Shown: positions 12,618 to 30,241 of the stretch, piece by piece
Layout of the letters: every line of letters begins with the position of its first letter
How positions within the stretch are numbered: position 1 is the first letter of the stretch
DNA from: Candidatus Sulfomarinibacteraceae bacterium
GTDB taxonomy: Bacteria; Acidobacteriota; Thermoanaerobaculia; Thermoanaerobaculales; Sulfomarinibacteraceae
DNA length: 64,000 bases
Reading direction: 5' to 3'
Assembly (NCBI GenBank): GCA_963741385.1
Contig: CAVUHO010000003.1
Location: 257,129 to 321,128 of the forward strand
Made by a program: the position numbers and the translations under genes
Notes under the pieces: generated by a model
The model's database searches: none
Told to the model about the DNA's origin: nothing
Seen by the model: the letters and a program-made list of their open reading frames with translations, nothing else

Positions 12618-12785
12618 GGGATCGGATCTTGGATATTGATTTCTGATATTGGATCCGTCCACCCATTCGGCAGCCGGGACGGCTGCCCCACAACCGTCTG
12701 TCAGCATCTTGTGGGGCACGCGTCTCGCGTGCCGGGCGGGTGGATGGATCGAGCACCGAGTATCGCGCATCCAGTATCATCCTCT
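12618..12785. repeat. composite intergenic repeat: degenerate 7-mers, CCACCC core and inverted REP pair
   Basis: GGCAGCCGGGACGGCTGCCCCACAA (12669-12693) faces TTGTGGGGCACGCGTCTCGCGTGCC (12709-12733), flanked by CCACCC/GGGTGG and degenerate 7-nt periodic tracts. Confidence 0.7.
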
Positions 12786-12787
12786 GC

Positions 12788-13162
12788 ATGCCACGCATCT
12801 CGCGGTTCTCCGAGTTCGACCTCACCGAACAGCGATCGCGTTTCTACGCCGCTGCCGTGCCGGCAGGAACGCTCGACGATGTCAAGGAGGCGCTCGCTGA
12901 ACGCAAGAAGAAGTACCACAAGGCGCGCCACCACTGCTGGGCGTGCCGGGTGCGGGACGAAAACGGGCAGGTGGTGGAGCAGGCGCGGGACGACGGCGAG
13001 GTCGGCCGACCGGGGATGAAGATGCTCGAGCTGCTTCGCCACCACGACCTCGAGGGCCTGCTGGTGGTGTCGCGGATCTTCGGCGGCGTCAAGCTCGGCC
13101 CGGGAGGCGTGGGTCGTGCCTTTCGCGATGCCGCCGAGGGTGCACTGCGAGGCCTCTCGTAG
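12788..13162 (+). CDS. yigZ: YigZ/IMPACT family protein (N-terminal domain only)
   Basis: SRFYA, ARHHCWA, DDGE..RPG, VVSRIFGGVKLGPGG. Confidence 0.85.
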   Translation: MPRISRFSEFDLTEQRSRFYAAAVPAGTLDDVKEALAERKKKYHKARHHCWACRVRDENGQVVEQARDDGEVGRPGMKMLELLRHHDLEGLLVVSRIFGGVKLGPGGVGRAFRDAAEGALRGLS

Positions 13163-13221
13163 GGCGTCCGCGAGGCGGTCATTCCGCAATCCGAAATCCG
13201 AATTCTGGATGGGTGGGCTGG

Positions 13222-13323
13222 GTCCAATCTCTCCATGTGCCACGGTTTTTTTCCCGCGGTGTATGGGAGTTGGCCTGAATTGTGGGCGTGGAGTCTTGTC
13301 GTGAGGTTGCTGGTGGAGCCGAA
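13222..13323 (-). pseudogene. GIY-YIG endonuclease fragment
   Basis: FGSTSNLTTRLHAHNSGQLPYTAGKKPWHMERL matches the GIY-YIG core pattern G-x-T-x-N-L-x-x-R-L-x-x-H-N-x-G...YT...PW; no intact start or C-terminus. Confidence 0.6.
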
Positions 13324-13479
13324 GGCGTCGACACTGCGGGACAGCGGCGCAATGTGAACGCGGTCGGGTCGCAGAGCGAGCCGGCCTGCGGTCACGCGGC
13401 GACGGTCCGTAGACCGATTCCCTTCGGCTGAGCCAGAGACGAGAAAAGCCGCCCGTAAGGGCGGCGAATTCGAAGTCTC
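13311..13479 (-). repeat. 169-bp tRNA-Ala-3'-end-tagged unit (third copy)
   Basis: Same unit as 20191-20359 and 20360-20528; contains terminator hairpin 13448-13465. Confidence 0.95.
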
Positions 13480-13505
13480 TGGTGGAGCCGCGAAGAATTC
13501 GAACC
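13480..13505 (-). other. att-like displaced tRNA-Ala 3' end (T-arm mimic plus CGGCTCCACCA)
   Basis: Minus strand GGTTCGAATTCTTCGCGGCTCCACCA versus tRNA GGGTTCGATCCCCTTCGGCTCCACCA. Confidence 0.7.
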
Positions 13506-13697
13506 ACAGCGTTCATCCCAATCGAAGTGCCGATCCTCGAGACCAGGATGCCGCCGATTTATCAGCGAATTGCCGTGAAGGCGAATCTACTCCATGAGCT
13601 TGGGTTGAGTCAGTCAGAGATTGGGCGCCGGTTGGGGGTTGATCGTTGGGCTGTCGGAAAGGCCCTTCGGTGGCTCGCAAAACAAAAGACAGGTTGA
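13482..13697 (+). CDS. small helix-turn-helix protein starting inside the att-like site
   Basis: LHELGLSQSEIGRRLGVDRWAVGKAL is an HTH pattern; start codon uncertain. Confidence 0.5.
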   Translation: MEPRRIRTTAFIPIEVPILETRMPPIYQRIAVKANLLHELGLSQSEIGRRLGVDRWAVGKALRWLAKQKTG

Positions 13698-13699
13698 AC

Positions 13700-14533
13700 T
13701 TACTCTTTCCCGTCGAGCTTTACTCCACCTTTCCAGGGTTCGCCAGGCAAGCGTGACACCAGGCTTTCGAGAACTGCATCCATGGCTGTGTCGCAATCCC
13801 AGGACAAGCCTGGGCGTAGGAGCGGCCGCACGTCATCGCGGAATTCGGGCTGTTGACGTTTTTTGGCCAGATTTTCTTCCAACTGCGCTCGGCTGACTCT
13901 GTGTCCGTCTTCGGCCATGTACCGGTCGAAGCAGGCGAGAAGTGTTGCTGGGTCGCAGCGCGCAGTGTCCAGCGCGTACCAGACATCGAAGAGGTCTCGG
14001 CCCTTCCTCCTCTGGTACAGCGCCCGCAGCTTGGTACAAAGCAGCTCGTTGATAGAGTAGGTCGCAACGTTTGCCACACCGCTGAACCAGGGGTTCGTCA
14101 CCTCGAACGGCACCTTTTTCACGCCCGATCCGGTGAAATGTTCGCGGGTGTTGATCTCGATCTTCAGCCGAAGCGTGAGCGGTGGAACATCCTCGGACTC
14201 GAATCGATACACGAGGGTGACGCGGCCCTCTTTGAGAGTGCGGCGGGGCTTCCCGAGCCATGGATCCAAGATGGCACGCGCCCGATCGAGGGTCTCGCCG
14301 ATTGACTCGGCCCTCTCCTGAACCAGATCGATGTCCTCGGAATATCGAGCCGGAGGTGTGAGGTAGATCTTGTACAAAGCGGTCCCGCCACGAAACGCCA
14401 GGCTATCCGCCAATTGGGTATCGGAAAAGAGGTTGACGATCGCGCGGCTTATCACCAGATCTTGCTCGACCTGAGCGTCGAGCGGCCACGGCGCTTGAGC
14501 TCTCCATGCGGTGATGTAGTCCTTGGGGATCAT
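13700..14533 (-). CDS. abiEii: AbiEii/AbiGii nucleotidyltransferase toxin (type IV TA)
   Basis: LAFRGGTALYK...RYSEDIDL, KIEIN, KLRALYQRRKGRDLFD; ATGA-coupled to the upstream antitoxin. Confidence 0.9.
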   Translation of the reverse strand: MIPKDYITAWRAQAPWPLDAQVEQDLVISRAIVNLFSDTQLADSLAFRGGTALYKIYLTPPARYSEDIDLVQERAESIGETLDRARAILDPWLGKPRRTLKEGRVTLVYRFESEDVPPLTLRLKIEINTREHFTGSGVKKVPFEVTNPWFSGVANVATYSINELLCTKLRALYQRRKGRDLFDVWYALDTARCDPATLLACFDRYMAEDGHRVSRAQLEENLAKKRQQPEFRDDVRPLLRPGLSWDCDTAMDAVLESLVSRLPGEPWKGGVKLDGKE

Positions 14534-15312
14534 TCGTCCGGCTCCACTTCGACGTTGACGATGATCTTCCAGCGAGGGTTCCTGACTCCACCGGCGATTG
14601 GCGCAGCGCGCCGCAGCGGGGTATAGCTCCGGGCATTCTCAAGCACGAAAGGCCTGAGAATTTGAGCGACATCTTCTCGCCTGACCAGCTCCAAGAGATA
14701 TCCCAAACGCTGTGACCAACTCACGGGACAGAGACGAGCGGTTTCGAGCAGTCCTTCAGCCACCATCTCCTCGGAGAGCTCAGACAGGACTGTGGCGACG
14801 TTGTCGAGACCACCAGCACGATTGGGGTAGCCGACCAGCTCGAGCGCCGTTCCTTCCGGGGTCGAATACCGCAGCACCCCGCGCGGCGTGTTGAGCCTGG
14901 TGACCGGCATTCTTTCGATGTCGCCACGGGCGATGAACTCGACTCTCACCTGCCCACAGGTGATGGCCTGACGGTTTTTGCGTACCATCACCTGGGTTGC
15001 CTGAGGTCGTTGATGCGCGGCGCCGTGCCTTTCGGCCGCACTCAACAGACAGAGGTAATAGGGCTCATCCCAGAATTGCATCAGATGGTCGACAAATTGC
15101 TCCGCCGGCAGGCAACCCAGGCGTTTGTACTCGGGCGGAACGATGACATGAAAGCTGCGCACGGGCTGCGCGATCAGTCCTTGCCGCTTCAGTCGGAGCA
15201 ACTGGGCACGCACTGCCGGAGGATTACCCTCGACAGCTTTGACAGCGTCCGCCGTTGTGAAGTGGTAGCGCCCATTCGATGCCAACTCCCGTATGTACTC
15301 ACTCGCTCGCAT
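14530..15312 (-). CDS. abiEi: AbiEi-family antitoxin (type IV TA)
   Basis: N-terminal wHTH (GRYHFTT), YYLCLLSAAERHGAAHQRPQ, STPEGTALELV; RBS AGGAG. Confidence 0.85.
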   Translation of the reverse strand: MRASEYIRELASNGRYHFTTADAVKAVEGNPPAVRAQLLRLKRQGLIAQPVRSFHVIVPPEYKRLGCLPAEQFVDHLMQFWDEPYYLCLLSAAERHGAAHQRPQATQVMVRKNRQAITCGQVRVEFIARGDIERMPVTRLNTPRGVLRYSTPEGTALELVGYPNRAGGLDNVATVLSELSEEMVAEGLLETARLCPVSWSQRLGYLLELVRREDVAQILRPFVLENARSYTPLRRAAPIAGGVRNPRWKIIVNVEVEPDE

Positions 15313-15356
15313 AACGTTACGATTCTCCTATAAAGTAATGTCAATCATCGTATCAA

Positions 15357-15392
15357 AGAAGAAACGTCCTGTTCTTTTGTTACGTTTCTTCT
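15357..15392. promoter_or_regulatory. 11-bp perfect inverted repeat upstream of abiEi, candidate autoregulatory operator
   Basis: AGAAGAAACGT-N14-ACGTTTCTTCT in an AT-rich patch 45-80 bp upstream of the abiEi start. Confidence 0.5.
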
Positions 15393-15656
15393 CCAAAATA
15401 ATATTTTTTGTGATATTTTGCAAGAATTGTATTTCTGAAGAGTCTGTTCAGGGGAAAGGAGGTTCTTTTCGGGCGCCTTCCGTTTCACCGTGCCGGGTCC
15501 CGAGGATGATCCGTTCAGCCGCGTCGAATTCTGCCCGAGAAATGACATTTGAAACAAACAAAATGTGTCTTTGCACGACGGTCGCCTTGACTGTAGGGGC
15601 CGTTCGGGTCACGCTGAGGCAGCCCGTCCACGCTGCAGGAGACGTCGGGCGTCACT

Positions 15657-16670
15657 GTGGCTCAAAGCTGCGCGGCCCGCTACCGGGCCCGGAATCCGCG
15701 TGCGACTCCCCTTTACCGGCTCTTCGAGACCCACTTCGACGAGGTGAGGGGGCAGTGGGAGGAGCGCTTCGAGCGGCGGTGCGGATTCTGGCGCGGCTTC
15801 GTCGACGAGGGGATGCGGCCGGGGATGGTCGCCGTGGTCCAGACCGCGGGCGACCTGGCCAATTGGCACCCACATGTGCACGCGATCGTGTCGCGCGGCG
15901 GCTGGATGCAGGATGGTGAGTGGATCCCGATCGCCTTCGTCGATGAGCACTCAGCGGAGCTGCTCTACCGGCACAAGGTGATGCGCCTGCTGCAGGATGA
16001 GGGGTTGCTCTCAGACGAGCGGACCGAGCTCCTACTGTCGTGGCGACACACCGGGTTTTCGGTGCACAACCGGGTTCGGGTGGAGCCCGAGGATCAGCCG
16101 GCGCAATTCGTCCGACGAATTGCAGCGTACTCCAACGTGTCGAGGGGCAAGCGCCGGAAGGCTGAGGCTGAGAATGGGGGGGTTGGGGGTGCGGGCGCCG
16201 GCCCGGCCTCCCGTGCGGCTCGTGCCGAGGCCCGCAACGCCCGCGCGCTCAGGCGAAGCTGGGCACAGCTGATCAAGCGGATCTACGAGGTCGACCCGCT
16301 GGTGTGCCCGTCCTGCGGTTCAGAGATGAAGGTGATCGCGTTCATCACCGAGCACGACGTGGTCGACGCGATCCTGAGGCATCTCGCGAAGACGGAAACG
16401 CGGTCTCCCCGCGGCCCGCCAGGCGCGGCGACCCTCCCCGCCACCCCCTGACTCCATCTCGGCTGCGGCCGTCCGTGCGGGGTGCGTCTATGGAGGCGGC
16501 GGCCGCACGGGGGGCCGAGGTTCGTAGCGTGTTGTCCCGGGACACGCTCTCCCTAACCCCGGGATCTGCCGTATCGGAGGCCGCTCGGGGCATGCGAGCC
16601 CATCTTGGGCCCCGAATAAGCGCCTCAGCCCCGTGCTAGGCTGGCGCTGAACGAAAGGAAATTCCTATCC
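15657..16670 (+). mobile_element. IS91-family (HUH/Y2) element, internally deleted transposase 15657-16451 plus oriIS-like end
   Basis: YRARNPRATPLYRL start, WHPHVHAIVSRGG (HUH), SWAQLIKRIYEVDPLVCPSCGSEMKVIAFI end. The Zn-finger block and the Y2 catalytic block are missing. AAATTCCTAT at 16659-16668 matches the IS91 oriIS motif. Confidence 0.8.
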
Positions 16671-16825
16671 CTCAGCTCGACCGCGTGCTCGATCGCAGCC
16701 ACCTGATGCCCCCCGGCGTGGTCGAGTCCTTGCTGCAGGGAATGAAGGCCGGCGACGACGTTTGATCTGCCGGCCTTTGAACGGGTGAGGTGAACAAACC
16801 AGTGAGTAACTCAAAGAAGACCGTC

Positions 16826-18253
16826 ATGAAAATGACCACCAGGATTCCGCCGGAGATCACCACGCCGGATTCGGTCGAGACCAGTCTCGGCACCTTGAAG
16901 TTCTTCGATGGCCTGCCGGACCAGGACACCGTCCAGAAGGTTTATGACAACCTTGACCGCATGCGTGGCGTCGAGGTGTTCCTGAACACGATGGCGCCGG
17001 CTTCCCTCCTCGCTAACATCGAGGGGCTGAAGAGCGTGGGCTGTGACAGTTACTCCGCTGTCATCCATGAAGACCGTGTGGATGCCAAGACGCTGTTGCT
17101 GACGCCGAATACGCAGACGGCCACCCTCTGGGCGTTCATGGACTTGAAGGACGGGCCGCTGGTGGTTGAGGTCCCGCCCGGCGTACTCGGTGTGGCCGAT
17201 GATGCGTGGATGCGATACGTCGTCGACCTGGGCTTGGTCGGCCCCGACAAGGGCAAGGGCGGCAGGTATCTCTTCTTGCCTCCGGGCTATACCGGTCCGG
17301 TGCCGGAAGGCTACTTTGTGGCGAAACTGCGCACCTATAAGGTCTGGCTTGTTGCCCGAGGATTTTCGGACAAAGGTGACACCGGCCCGGCTGTAAGAGC
17401 CTTCAAGGACCAATGGAAAGTCTATCCCTTGGCGGCGGCGGCCAATCCGCCGAAGATGAAGTTCATCAACGGTTCCGGCCTCTATTTCAACACCATCCAC
17501 GCGGTGAACTTCGCATTCTACGAAGAGGTCAACAAGGTTATTCAGGAAGAGCCGGCGGATTCAGCCGACCCTGAGATTCTCGGTCAGCTTGCCGCCATCG
17601 GCATCGTGAAAGGCAAGCCTTTCGCACCCGACGCGCGGATTAAGAAGATCCTTACCGACGCAGCGGCCATTGGCAACGCCACGGCGCGTGCCCTGTCGTT
17701 CAAATCTCGTGATGAGCAGATGTATTTTTACCCAGGCAAGTCCTGGTTCACGCCATTCGTCGGTGGCAGCCACGAGTTCATTCAGAACAACGTCCGCCTG
17801 CTCGACGCGCGAACCGTGTTCTTCTACATGGCCACGGGTATCACCCCAGCCATGAGTGTGAAAATCATCGGCGCTGGGTCGCAATACGCGGGGGCCACGT
17901 TCGACGCTGATGGCAATTACCTGGACGGCGGGAATAACTACCGGCTGCAACTGCCACCCAATGTCCCCATCAACAACTTCTGGTCGATCATTCCCTACGA
18001 CACGCAGACCCGCTCGGTCCTGCAGACCGACCAGCGCGACACCGCCCTGACCAGCAACTCGGGCACGGTGGCATCCAACCCCGATGGCTCGGTGGACATC
18101 TACTTCGGACCGAATGCGCCAGCGGGCAAGGAAAGCAACTGGGTGCAGACGACCCCTGGCAAGGGCTGGTTCACCATCCTGCGCCTCTACGGCGCGCTCG
18201 AACCTTGGTTCGACAAGACCTGGCGGCCGGGCGAGATCGAACTGGTGAAGTGA
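16826..18253 (+). CDS. DUF1254/DUF1214 domain protein (copy A)
   Basis: LLLTPNTQT, DLKDGPLVVEVPPG, GPDKGKGGRYLFLPPGY, NNFWSIIPYD, DGSVDIYFGP, LRLYG; no signal peptide. Confidence 0.9.
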   Translation: MKMTTRIPPEITTPDSVETSLGTLKFFDGLPDQDTVQKVYDNLDRMRGVEVFLNTMAPASLLANIEGLKSVGCDSYSAVIHEDRVDAKTLLLTPNTQTATLWAFMDLKDGPLVVEVPPGVLGVADDAWMRYVVDLGLVGPDKGKGGRYLFLPPGYTGPVPEGYFVAKLRTYKVWLVARGFSDKGDTGPAVRAFKDQWKVYPLAAAANPPKMKFINGSGLYFNTIHAVNFAFYEEVNKVIQEEPADSADPEILGQLAAIGIVKGKPFAPDARIKKILTDAAAIGNATARALSFKSRDEQMYFYPGKSWFTPFVGGSHEFIQNNVRLLDARTVFFYMATGITPAMSVKIIGAGSQYAGATFDADGNYLDGGNNYRLQLPPNVPINNFWSIIPYDTQTRSVLQTDQRDTALTSNSGTVASNPDGSVDIYFGPNAPAGKESNWVQTTPGKGWFTILRLYGALEPWFDKTWRPGEIELVK

Positions 18254-18282
18254 GCAAACCAATTGGTAGCTCAAAGGAGACC

Positions 18283-19680
18283 ATGATGAAAATGACCACC
18301 AAGATGACCGACGGTCAGCCGCTCCCCGGCACCAGGCAATCCGTTCCTGATCTCGAAGAACAGGTGGCTTACCACCGCGCGTTCGAGGCCGTGGTGTGGG
18401 CGATACCCGCGTTGGCCATCCACCGCTTTCGCGAAGGGCTTTATGAAGTGCCCGGCGTTGAGGACAACGTCGTTCTCGCCTTTTCAGGGACGTTGAAAGC
18501 GCGGCATGAAGTCATCACCGCCAACACGGCGGTCCCGTACATCTCGGCGTTCACCGACCTGCGAAAAGGTCCGATGGTCGTCGAAGTGCCCGCGGCCACT
18601 GACAAGGCGAGCCTGTACGGCCAGGTGGTCGACGCCTGGCAGGTCACTATCGCCGGCGTCGGCCCCTCGGGACCGGACAAGGGGGCCGGCGGCAAGTACC
18701 TGTTCATCCCACCCGGTTACCAGGACGCGATTCCGGAAGGTTTCTTCCCGATCCGTTCCACCAGTTACCGGCTCGCATTGGCTTTCCGTTCCGTTCCGGG
18801 CAAGGGCGCCAGCCAGGCCGACGCCTACGCCTACACGAAGACATTGAAGATGTATCCGCTCTCGGAAGCCGACAACCCCAAGCCCACACGATTTGTGGAC
18901 GGCTTTCCGCTTGCGATCCAGACGCTCCCGTACTACGACATCCGCGCGCTGCAGGACATCCATGACTTTGTCAGCGTCGAGCCGGTGGAAGAGCGCGACA
19001 AGGTCATGATCGGAATACTCGCCACCATCGGCATCGAGAAGGGCAAGCCGTTCAATCCGGCGCCGAAGATGCAGGCGGCGATGGCACGGGCTGTCGTCGA
19101 TGCCTACCACTACATGCAGGGACTGACCCTGAAGTTGCTGCAGGAGAACCTGTGGTGGCCCGATCGGCATTGGGCCATGGTCCTGGTTCCGGACGAAAGC
19201 GGCGGGTTCGAGTTCATCACGGATCGGGCTGTCGAAATCGACAAGCGTGCCGCGATCTGGTTCCCCGCCATTTTCCTCCCTCCCAAGTTCAATGAAAACG
19301 CCGCGACGGTGTACGTGTCGCCGATTGCCGACAAAGACGGGAATGCCGTGGAAGCGGGCAAGCTCTACCGCATCCGGATCCCCAAGGACACCCCGGCCAA
19401 ACAGTTCTGGTCGATCACCGTGTACGACAACGCGACCTGGGGCTTCATCATCAACCCGCAGGATCGTTCCGGATTGGGGATGTTCGACAAGGACAAGATG
19501 ACGGTGAACGACGACGGGAGCGTGGACGTCTACGTAGGGCCGAAGGCTCCCGACGGCCTGGAATCCAACTGGATTCCGAGCATGGACAAGAAGCCCGTCA
19601 TCTGGCTGCGGCTGTACGGACCGGATGAGCCGTTCTGGAAGAAGACCTTCAAGATGCCCGACATCGAACTGGTGAAGTGA
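18283..19680 (+). CDS. DUF1254/DUF1214 domain protein (copy B)
   Basis: ITANTAVPY, DLRKGPMVVEVP, GPDKGAGGKYLFIPPGY, QFWSITVYD, DGSVDVYVGP, LRLYGP; RBS AAGGAG. Confidence 0.9.
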   Translation: MMKMTTKMTDGQPLPGTRQSVPDLEEQVAYHRAFEAVVWAIPALAIHRFREGLYEVPGVEDNVVLAFSGTLKARHEVITANTAVPYISAFTDLRKGPMVVEVPAATDKASLYGQVVDAWQVTIAGVGPSGPDKGAGGKYLFIPPGYQDAIPEGFFPIRSTSYRLALAFRSVPGKGASQADAYAYTKTLKMYPLSEADNPKPTRFVDGFPLAIQTLPYYDIRALQDIHDFVSVEPVEERDKVMIGILATIGIEKGKPFNPAPKMQAAMARAVVDAYHYMQGLTLKLLQENLWWPDRHWAMVLVPDESGGFEFITDRAVEIDKRAAIWFPAIFLPPKFNENAATVYVSPIADKDGNAVEAGKLYRIRIPKDTPAKQFWSITVYDNATWGFIINPQDRSGLGMFDKDKMTVNDDGSVDVYVGPKAPDGLESNWIPSMDKKPVIWLRLYGPDEPFWKKTFKMPDIELVK

Positions 19681-19744
19681 CCACGCAACCACGTGCCGGT
19701 GGACGCTTTCTGCTGCCAGCCTTCCTTTCCTCAAGGAGGTCCTA

Positions 19745-19888
19745 ATGAAGGTGACGCCTGAGACCTACGTGCGCGCGGAAACCGATCGACAGTTCGGCAT
19801 CGTCGCCCGGATGGCGGGCGGCGTGAACCAGCTCTTCCATTTCCGTCGTCCCACCCCCCTGGACCAGCAGAACATCGTGCGGATGAAT
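19745..19888 (+). pseudogene. third DUF1254-type gene truncated after 48 codons
   Basis: RBS AAGGAGG; MKVTPETYVRAETDRQF...PTPLDQQNIVRMN stops resembling the family exactly where RDTLYS is expected, at a 63-bp hairpin. Confidence 0.7.
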
Positions 19889-19951
19889 GGGTGCCAGGTA
19901 CGGAGTTACGGAGTTGTGAGGTGTAACTGCGTAACTCCGTATCCGGCACCC
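19889..19951. repeat. 63-bp imperfect palindrome at the island right junction
   Basis: 27-nt arms GGGTGCCAGGTACGGAGTTACGGAGTT / AACTGCGTAACTCCGTATCCGGCACCC with 3 mismatches and a 9-nt loop. Confidence 0.85.
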
Positions 19952-19955
19952 AGTG

Positions 19956-20370
19956 GGCGGTGTCAATCTCGGCCCGGGAGGCGTGGGTCGTGCGTTTCGC
20001 GATGCCGCCGAGGGTGCACTGCGAGGCCTCTCGTAGGGCGTCCGCGAGGCGGTCATTCCGCAATCCGAAATCCCCAATCCGAATTCTGGATGGGTGGGCT
20101 GGGTACAATCTCTCCATGTGCCACGGTTTTTTTTCGCGGTGTATGGGAGTTGGCCTGAATTGTGGGCGTGGAGTCTTGTCGTGAGGTTGCTGGTGGAGCC
20201 GAAGGGGTCGACACTGCGGGACAGCGGCGCAATGTGAACGCGGTCGGGTCGCAGAGCGAGCCGGCCTGCGGTCACGCGGCGATGGTCCGTAGACCGATTC
20301 CCTTCGGCTGAGCCAGAGACGAGAAAAGCCGCCCGTAAGGGCGGCGAATTCGAAGTCTCTGGTGGAGCCG
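19956..20370 (+). repeat. direct repeat copy 2, starting with an orphan yigZ 3' end (19956-20036)
   Basis: GGVNLGPGGVGRAFRDAAEGALRGLS* duplicates the yigZ C-terminus; the rest matches 13163-13490. Confidence 0.95.
20102..20203 (-). pseudogene. GIY-YIG fragment, second copy with a -1 frameshift in a T-run
   Basis: FGSTSNLTTRLHAHNSGQLPYTAKK then shifts frame relative to copy 1. Confidence 0.55.
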
Positions 20371-20528
20371 AAGGGGTCGACACTGCGGGACAGCGGCGCA
20401 ATGTGAACGCGGTCGGGTCGCAGAGCGAGCCGGCCTGCGGTCACGCGGCGATGGTCCGTAGACCGATTCCCTTCGGCTGAGCCAGAGACGAGAAAAGCCG
20501 CCCGTAAGGGCGGCGAATTCGAAGTCTC
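20191..20528 (-). repeat. two tandem 169-bp units, each ending in the last 17 nt of tRNA-Ala
   Basis: TGGTGGAGCCGAAGGGG recurs at 20191, 20360 and 20529 (period 169). Confidence 0.97.
20493..20514 (-). terminator. Rho-independent terminator after tRNA-Ala (repeated in each 169-bp unit)
   Basis: Minus strand GCCGCCC-TTAC-GGGCGGC followed by TTTTCTC. Confidence 0.7.
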
Positions 20529-20604
20529 TGGTGGAGCCGAAGGGGATCGAACCCTCGACCTCAGCATTGCGAACGCTGCGCTCTCCCAATTGAGCTACGG
20601 CCCC
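20529..20604 (-). tRNA. tRNA-Ala (anticodon CGC)
   Basis: 76 nt GGGGCCGTAGCTCAATTGGGAGAGCGCAGCGTTCGCAATGCTGAGGTCGAGGGTTCGATCCCCTTCGGCTCCACCA; cloverleaf, G3:U70 pair, encoded CCA. Confidence 0.98.
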
Positions 20605-20615
20605 ACGCGCGGCGG

Positions 20616-20644
20616 ATAATACCCTGATCGGCAACGGGTTGCAA
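20616..20644 (-). promoter_or_regulatory. sigma70-type promoter of tRNA-Ala
   Basis: TTGCAA-17 bp-TATTAT, followed by a GC-rich discriminator. Confidence 0.7.
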
Positions 20645-29721: not shown

Positions 29722-29783
29722 GGCTCGTATTAGCAGGCTCTTCAGACGTGAGCACTCGTACCAAGGTTAAAGGCTGCGATGGA

Positions 29784-29823
29784 AAATCCGAAATCCGAAA
29801 TCCGAAATCCGAAATCCGAAATC
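29784..29823 (+). repeat. heptamer array (AAATCCG)5
   Basis: Five exact copies plus a partial. Confidence 0.95.
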
Positions 29824-29893
29824 TGTTCTCCGGGCGCCGCCGCACGCGACTCGTGTCAGCTCGCCAGCTTTCCGCTCGCGAACTCTCTCAAAC

Positions 29894-30162
29894 TGTCATC
29901 CCGAGCGAGCGAAGCGAGCCGAGGGATCTGGGGGGTGGCTTCAGGAAGATTTTTCCTTCAGCCCCCGCCCAGATCCCTCCGCTCGGTCGCTGCGCTCCCT
30001 CGGTCGGGATGACAGAGGGGGAACCGCTGCGCTCCCTCGGTCGGGATGACAGAGGGGGAACCGCTGCGCTCCCTCGGTCGGGATGACAGAGGGGGAACCG
30101 CTGCGCTCCCTCGGTCGGGATGACAGAGGGGGAATCGCTTTGCTCCCTCGGTCGGGATGACA
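29894..30162. repeat. TGTCATCCCG...CGGGATGACA palindromic REP-type element with a 37-bp unit amplified five times
   Basis: CGGGAT at 30005, 30042, 30079, 30116 and 30153; unit CGCTGCGCTCCCTCGGTCGGGATGACAGAGGGGGAAC; no spacers. Confidence 0.92.
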
Positions 30163-30200
30163 GAAAGTTGGACGCTGCTGAGTTCGTGCATCCTGGAATT

Positions 30201-30241
30201 GGGAGGGTGGGTGGGAAATCCGAAATCCGAAATCCGAAATC
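30201..30241 (+). repeat. GGGTGGGTGGG core plus (AAATCCG)3
   Basis: Direct reading. Confidence 0.9.

Follow-up and report, generated by a model that had tools for sequence, protein, structure and literature searches.

A tandem array of tRNA-linked hairpin cassettes behind tRNA-Ala(CGC) in Candidatus Sulfomarinibacteraceae

The tRNA-Ala(CGC) gene and its two repeat units

The window analysed in this work (the whole stretch of 64,000 nucleotides, from a Candidatus Sulfomarinibacteraceae bacterium) contains a single tRNA gene, a tRNA-Ala(CGC) with an encoded CCA at positions 20529-20604 of the minus strand (ARAGORN; Rfam tRNA, 63.9 bits), preceded on the same strand by a sigma-70-like promoter, TTGCAA-17-TATTAT, at 20616-20644. 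Behind the gene, and in the same orientation, lie two units of 169 bp, U1 at 20360-20528 and U2 at 20191-20359, the first base of U1 being the very base next to the CCA. The two units stand head-to-tail and are identical at 169 of 169 bases (TRF: a tandem repeat at 20190-20550 with a period of 169, 2.1 copies and 99% matches). Read along the tRNA strand, each of them consists of a terminator (20490-20514 in U1, 20321-20345 in U2), a degenerate inverted copy of the tRNA end (20465-20485 and 20296-20316), a hairpin module (20377-20464 and 20208-20295) and, in direct orientation, a copy of the tRNA's final 17 nt (20360-20376 and 20191-20207). The terminator-like hairpin reads GCCGCCC-TTAC-GGGCGGC followed by TTTTCTC, at 20514-20497 and 20345-20328, and the direct copy, CCA included, is CCCCTTCGGCTCCACCA, a sequence found three times exactly and once with one mismatch for a shuffle expectation of 0.02. 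Allowing for one gap, the likeness of the unit end to the tRNA extends over 21 of 22 positions, back to the TCGA of the T-loop.

An initial annotation of this DNA had described a tRNA-Ala followed by tandem 169-bp units, each with a terminator and a tRNA 3′ end, and the TRF, Rfam and identity checks agree with it. The layout of the array is as it was then given, but the strand had been missed: the tRNA is on the minus strand, so that the ‘downstream’ units lie at lower coordinates. Neither ARAGORN nor Rfam detected a pseudo-tRNA or a tmRNA within the unit. Protein coding in the module was considered and ruled out by reading its six frames, since the variable sites fall evenly (9/9/9) over the three codon phases and the module thus does not encode protein.

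Together with its flanks the module folds into an imperfect hairpin of about 110 nt, running from the inverted tRNA-end copy through the module to the direct copy. The inverted copy, CTGGCTCAGCCGAAGGGAATC, precedes the module and is degenerate (16/20), with AGCCGAAGGG pairing with CCCTTCGGCT to form the closing helix; in G064, a relative carrying the same module, the inverted copy is a perfect 20-mer, and in the tmRNA-linked units described below the closing helix is absent. The fold energy is −78.9 kcal/mol (z = −6.5) on the plus strand of the window and −58.2 kcal/mol (z = −3.4) on the tRNA strand. The module, here called type A, is about 90 nt long (GGTCTACGG...CCGCAGTGTCGA) and contains GCGTTCAC twice in direct orientation, at a distance of about 42 nt. 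The initial annotation had proposed a fold and covariance analysis, which gave three compensatory pairs for type A (96.9% of the cells pair among ten homologues; 1/500 shuffles) and strong covariation for a sister family, type B, in which 18 of the 28 pairs are compensatory, 94.6% of the cells pair and none of 500 shuffles reaches the observed value. Changes in type B are almost entirely double (37, against a single one-sided change), with almost no G-U intermediates, which fits a hairpin formed by both strands of the DNA at least as well as one formed by RNA.

Type B is also found away from tRNA genes, at no fewer than 11 dispersed sites in addition to the tRNA-linked ones. The dispersed copies have GGATTTC heptamer arrays on both sides (e.g., C14:50286-50369, C6:707632-707715 and C4:51947-52030). 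Heptamers of this sequence occur in the window too, at 13176-13205, 20050-20093, 29766-29837 and 30212-30241, and a further repeated stretch of the window, at 29988-30172, consists of five tandem 37-bp copies (CGCTGCGCTCCCTCGGTCGGGATGACAGAGGGGGAAC) adjoining long inverted repeats at 29893-30015.

A diverged third unit and the neighbouring island

A third unit, U3, with two differences from U1, is located at 13311-13479 of the minus strand. It lies inside the left copy of a direct repeat of about 410 bp, whose two copies (13082-13490 and 19956-20370) are 96% identical with two indels. The remainder of the left copy (13082-13310) comprises a remnant of a GIY-YIG gene, intergenic DNA and the 3′ end of an intact UPF0029 gene (12740-13162, plus strand), and the remainder of the right copy (19956-20084) comprises intergenic DNA with heptamer repeats and an orphan UPF0029 fragment, the final ~80 bp of that gene. 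The copy announced by the initial annotation some 7 kb away is therefore present, but as part of a 410-bp repeat flanking an island and not as an independent unit or array.

The island, an insertion of 6.5 kb between the repeat copies (13491-19955), carries a small HTH ORF, an AbiEii/AbiEi pair, a remnant of an IS91-type element (Y2_Tnp) and two DUF1254/DUF1214 genes, and no integrase was found within it. About 3.3 kb of the island (13400-16673) are 93-98% identical to a region of the congener G009 (G009:C6:37095-40900), as opposed to only 78% for the flanking UPF0029 gene, so that the movement of the island is recent. The copy in G009 likewise ends with a pseudo-core and the first ~80 nt of a cassette, and is not beside a tRNA-Ala. 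In the window, the left edge of the island meets the chromosome inside a tRNA-end copy, at 13480-13490. The junction (13480-13511, minus strand) joins an element-borne pseudo T-arm, CGCTGTGGTTCGAATTCTTCGC, to GGCTCCACCAG of a host-type tRNA-end copy, so that a tRNA-end copy served as the joint.

At the other edge of the island there is a 63-bp hairpin (19888-19952; GGTGCCAGGTACGGAGTT...AACTCCGTATCCGGCACC). It resembles the paired terminal inverted repeats of the Y1_Tnp insertion sequences of this genome (e.g., G000:C4 near 17659), and is probably a gene-less derivative of one of them.

Empty and occupied loci in the relatives

Comparison of the tRNA-Ala(CGC) locus across 21 genomes of the genus reveals what the locus looks like when empty. 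In at least nine congeners the CCA is followed directly by the native terminator and a REP-like element, and in G016, G021, G003 and G010 these are followed, on the same strand, by a GIY-YIG gene of about 90 codons, which among these four is intact only in G021, being frameshifted in G016 and diverging early in G003. The window retains the 3′ part of such a gene at 20085-20190 (minus strand; a weak match to PF01541), lacking about its first 27 codons and frameshifted in an A-run. At the nucleotide level, the DNA past the last unit is 92% identical to the GIY-YIG gene behind tRNA-Ala in G016 and 81% to that in G021, the match to the former starting from CGGC...CACCAGCAACC. The point of fusion falls in the codons G-S-T, where the gene reads CCGGC(T/C)(C/G)CACCAGC and over 11 nt resembles the tRNA end CGGCTCCACCA. 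Set against the empty locus, the native terminator, the REP-like element and the ~27 first codons have been lost and the end of the cassette has been fused at a microhomology. Aligned in this way, the loci demonstrate that the cassette was inserted at the tRNA-Ala(CGC) 3′ end and displaced the native terminator. We also considered whether the unit might encode the ‘GIY’ half of the nuclease, and rejected it because the true N-terminus (MAPYHYVYIL...) sits in the DNA deleted here.

The initial annotation had in addition seen in each unit a spare integration site. The island joined within a tRNA-end copy and the last unit fused to GIY-YIG at a look-alike of that end both point in this direction, if indirectly.

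Two further arrangements were seen around these genes. In one metagenome contig (L205) a type A module lies directly after an intact GIY-YIG gene and not after a tRNA. In L194 (G009:C7) and L025 (G021:C1), tandem REP-like units of about 125 bp, GGCTTCG...CGAAGCCTGCCACGGCGAAGC...GCGAAGCCGGGC, follow the tRNA-Ala directly or a tmRNA cassette, and this motif recurs past the native terminator at many tRNA genes.

Six genomes have cassettes at tRNA-Ala(CGC), and they do not all have the same module: type A is present in the genome under study and in G012, and type B in G008, G018 and G005, the last with an array of four units of 206 bp. Conversely, type A is found at other genes. It lies behind the tmRNA gene in G024 (two units of 161 bp), G021, G014, G005, G018, in G086, which belongs to another genus, and in at least eight metagenome contigs; there the cassette, with its own terminator, sits between the CCA and the native ssrA terminator and ends in the last 22 nt of the tmRNA. 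No unit was found behind the tmRNA gene of the genome under study. The tmRNA distribution could in part reflect vertical inheritance and loss instead of repeated insertion. Type A is also located behind tRNA-Ala(GGC) in G064, and as a half-module behind the same gene in the present genome. The relatives that possess the module belong to Candidatus Sulfomarinibacteraceae (Thermoanaerobaculia, Acidobacteriota). Across genera the module is 80-90% conserved, as opposed to the adjacent terminator, which keeps its structure alone.

In some cases the tRNA-end copy and its neighbour do not agree. The core in G027 has the T-stem of the own-genus tRNA-Ala(CGC) and not that of the resident tRNA, and at the tRNA-Ala(GGC) of G005:C2 the unit ends in a CGC-type core. 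Such mismatches show transfer between genes or species, with the exchange taking place inside CGGCTCCACCA. Other changes to the cassette were observed as well: in the metagenome contigs L206 and L215 the hairpin centre has been lost by deletion between the two GCGTTCAC direct repeats, and in L026 (G014:C11, ~1104100-1104520) a 272-bp element bounded by inverted repeats (GGGGCCTGTCCGAGTATTGG) splits the tmRNA-linked cassette.

The four type A copies of the present genome are all next to genes of alanine-accepting RNAs, and the type A hosts taken together (tRNA-Ala with CGC or GGC anticodon, and tmRNA) could hint at a specificity for such RNAs. This was rejected in view of the arrays behind other tRNA genes. 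A script searching the whole assembly for tandem copies of a gene's own 3′ end behind tRNA genes recovered at least five further genes with arrays: tRNA-Leu(CAG) (C3:174809-174986, one unit of 178 bp), tRNA-Arg(TCG) (C6:141906-142355, at least two of 180 bp), tRNA-Asp(GTC) (C10:471753-472078, two of 163 bp), tRNA-Glu(CTC) (C10:814399-814741, at least three of 90 bp) and tRNA-Lys(TTT) (C10:1322877-1323232, two of 178 bp). Behind tRNA-Pro(GGG) there is just one incomplete module, which lacks a copy of the tRNA end (C14:82283-82375). The tRNA-end copies of these other arrays are 22-24 nt long. All arrays have the start of their identity to the tRNA in the T-loop, at T55 in five of them and 4 nt later at Asp; at this boundary the units have G(G/A)TCGA and the gene has GTTCGA. 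In the units behind tRNA-Arg, tRNA-Lys and tRNA-Leu the module comes after the T-stem 5′ strand, copied in direct orientation, and TT, and hence looks like an insert in the T-loop of a partial tRNA copy. The initial annotation had named a lack of homologous arrays among the things that would refute its reading; the four units of G005, the two of G024 and these five arrays show that such arrays exist.

Origin and significance of the cassettes

tRNA-linked repeats (TLRs) have been known from E. coli since 1978, with a hint of function for a few of them. The term covers units that follow a tRNA or rRNA gene and repeat the end of that gene in their final 18-19 bp; E. coli has 22, spread over ten loci with one to five at each, and no maker has been established for them (PMC8144298). 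Three rRNA-linked ones (rrA/rrB/rrF), with two terminators and the module between, are sRNAs made by terminator read-through, the first function found for a TLR (PMC8144298). At the E. coli tyrT-tyrV locus, the 178-bp units end in the last 19 nt of the tRNA. The tRNA-Tyr end is also present inside these units as an inverted complement (GGGGAAGGAT), and their fold includes a closing helix. RttR, annotated as an sRNA, has its 3′ end at the CCA of a tyrT unit. The parallel with tyrT drawn in the initial annotation is thus apt, and extends to the inverted tRNA-end copy.

The acidobacterial cassettes share with the TLRs of E. coli every structural feature that defines them: location directly 3′ of a stable-RNA gene and on its strand, one to five tandem units of 160-180 bp, unit ends made of the last 17-22 nt of the gene from T-loop to CCA, several loci per genome, and, a feature read here from the tyrT units, an internal inverted complement forming a closing helix. 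The two groups nonetheless have no similarity in sequence or by covariance model (cmscan over 10000-32000 gave no match to Rfam RtT, RF00391, at E ≤ 1, but only the tRNA and chance miRNA matches). Unlike the E. coli units, the acidobacterial ones have their own terminator directly after the CCA and, as body, a single long hairpin with relatives among the dispersed repeats; the family also occurs behind tmRNA, and both insertion polymorphism and transfer between genes are visible.

Two other kinds of element resemble the cassettes in part. Like the attachment repeats of islands at tRNA and tmRNA genes, they repeat the 3′ part of the gene from the T-loop on, restore the gene end, bring a terminator and stack in tandem, and the neighbouring 6.5-kb island joins at such a repeat; unlike islands, the units have neither integrase nor cargo, there are only 152 nt between the repeats, and one and the same structured module is found at different genes. 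T-loop-type att sites are known from phage Ms6 at tRNA-Ala (PMC1762012) and from the Islander collection (PMC4383910). With REP/BIME/REPIN and ERIC elements and their RAYT (Y1 HUH) enzymes the cassettes share imperfect hairpins with covarying stems at the 3′ ends of transcription units, the sister type B module also has dispersed copies, and there are at least 16 Y1_Tnp loci in the genome. Type A differs from them in its four copies, its bracketing by tRNA-end copies and its dissimilarity to the inverted repeats that flank Y1_Tnp genes.

Of genes for tyrosine recombinases (PF00589) the genome has three, none of them beside a tRNA, and no recombinase was found linked to the units. No full-length element with cargo between the module halves turned up in a family model search, an order-wide pattern search (119 genomes), a scan across every GTDB species, which returned only family members and chance matches, or a metagenome scan. 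The 11.5-kb island at the tRNA-Ala(GGC) of G005:C2 (L034, 139500-153500), bounded by a 45-nt repeat from the anticodon loop, was considered as a source of integrase and dismissed, as it holds a TOTE primase-helicase, AbiE and DUF2971 and no recognisable recombinase; it also has a LytTR gene and a 400-aa ORF without assigned family. The Y1_Tnp genes (PF01797, IS200-like, with a DnaA-C-like HTH tail; e.g., C3:172100-173134, C15:150656-151663 and C6:190987-192015) are each flanked by inverted repeats of about 30 nt and AAAAGTGCCA iterons. Among seven loci (the six arrays and the tRNA-Pro module), two have such a gene within 3 kb (rough binomial p ~0.008). Kinship of the units with the ends of these elements was discarded, there being no BLAST similarity to the flanks of 12 Y1_Tnp genes. 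A Y1_Tnp insertion sequence was also seen inside the type A module of G012, after CCCGCAG, on three contigs.

These comparisons establish that the cassettes were inserted, passed between genes and recently doubled, that their hairpin is conserved, and that spare tRNA ends were used as joints. The reading that we prefer, at a probability of about 0.6, is that the units are recombination-made and amplifiable tRNA-linked repeat cassettes, inserted, self-contained and non-coding. Such a cassette consists of an intrinsic terminator followed by an imperfect hairpin, whose foot is formed by inverted and direct copies of the 3′ strand of the T-stem and acceptor, and ends in CCA. It would have been placed by recombination within the segment from T-loop to CCA; candidates for the maker are an integrase specific for the T-loop and working in trans, or whatever mobilises the kindred hairpin repeats dispersed in the genome. 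The doubling would then have come about by unequal recombination of one tRNA-end copy with another, which fits the identity of U1 and U2. The extra tRNA ends may in turn serve for landing or recombination in place of the functional gene, which would thereby be spared, as exemplified by the island junction. By analogy with RttR and rrA/rrB/rrF, transcripts running past the terminators could possibly be cut back at each CCA to give small RNAs, which the initial annotation had put at ~169 nt.

This last possibility can be taken further, to the units being small-RNA genes of the RttR or 3′-external-transcribed-spacer type, with the RNA itself under selection. We regard this as a tentative alternative, compatible with a recombinational origin. 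In its favour are the conservation of the module next to a terminator kept by structure alone, the stable fold and some covariation, and it agrees with the layout of two terminators with a module between known from rrA/rrB/rrF (PMC8144298), as well as with RttR being annotated to end at a unit's CCA. Yet a strong terminator (seven G-C pairs and a T-run) stands directly after the tRNA, double changes outnumbering one-sided ones by 37 to 1 in type B are better suited to DNA hairpins, the tmRNA-linked units do without the closing helix, and the deletion variants in L206 and L215 persist without the hairpin centre. Less probable still, in our judgement, are the units as cargo-less ‘attP-only’ remains of integrase-borne islands targeting the T-loop, the module halves being the P and P′ arms and the arrays arising by repeated integration or tandem accretion. 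The identity block from T-loop to CCA is indeed that of Ms6 (PMC1762012) and Islander (PMC4383910) sites, the terminator right after the CCA is matched in the true islands of G005:C2 and G022, the module has the two direct GCGTTCAC repeats, and in size the unit comes near to an attP. Against this stand the failure to find any integrase-bearing element with these arms, either in the order (119 genomes) or by scanning metagenomes, the lack of a tRNA-associated integrase in the genome under study, the dispersal of type B away from tRNAs, and a hairpin that covaries as a structured element and not as a set of protein-binding sites.

It is highly improbable that the array is just a local tandem duplication that happened once, or an artefact of assembly, with no wider meaning. 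U1 and U2 are identical and the genome is a metagenome-assembled draft of 17 contigs, as such an artefact might have it; but homologous cassettes in many independent genomes and at other genes make it unlikely, and the same holds for the empty sites in congeners and the diverged third copy on the same contig. It is tempting, on the other hand, to go beyond the preferred reading and to speculate that the cassettes are non-autonomous mobile hairpins that home to the T-loop in copies of tRNA and tmRNA 3′ ends and leave the gene intact, moved in trans by, for instance, the abundant Y1/HUH transposases working on hairpins in single-stranded form, or by an unrecognised recombinase, with TLRs resulting from their stacking. 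We consider this doubtful, though if true it would provide a mechanism for the origin of TLRs and make tRNA ends buffered docking platforms for islands.

In conclusion, the locus is, as judged from its relatives, one of a lineage-wide system of tRNA-linked hairpin cassettes. The same architecture in an acidobacterial lineage means that TLRs are no enterobacterial oddity. Unlike E. coli, this lineage offers empty and occupied sites, several modules at one gene and one module at several genes, and the exact T-loop boundaries together with the polymorphism of the sites make the origin of TLRs testable. For the annotation of such genomes, spare tRNA ends would mark places where islands dock, and may themselves pass for island borders.
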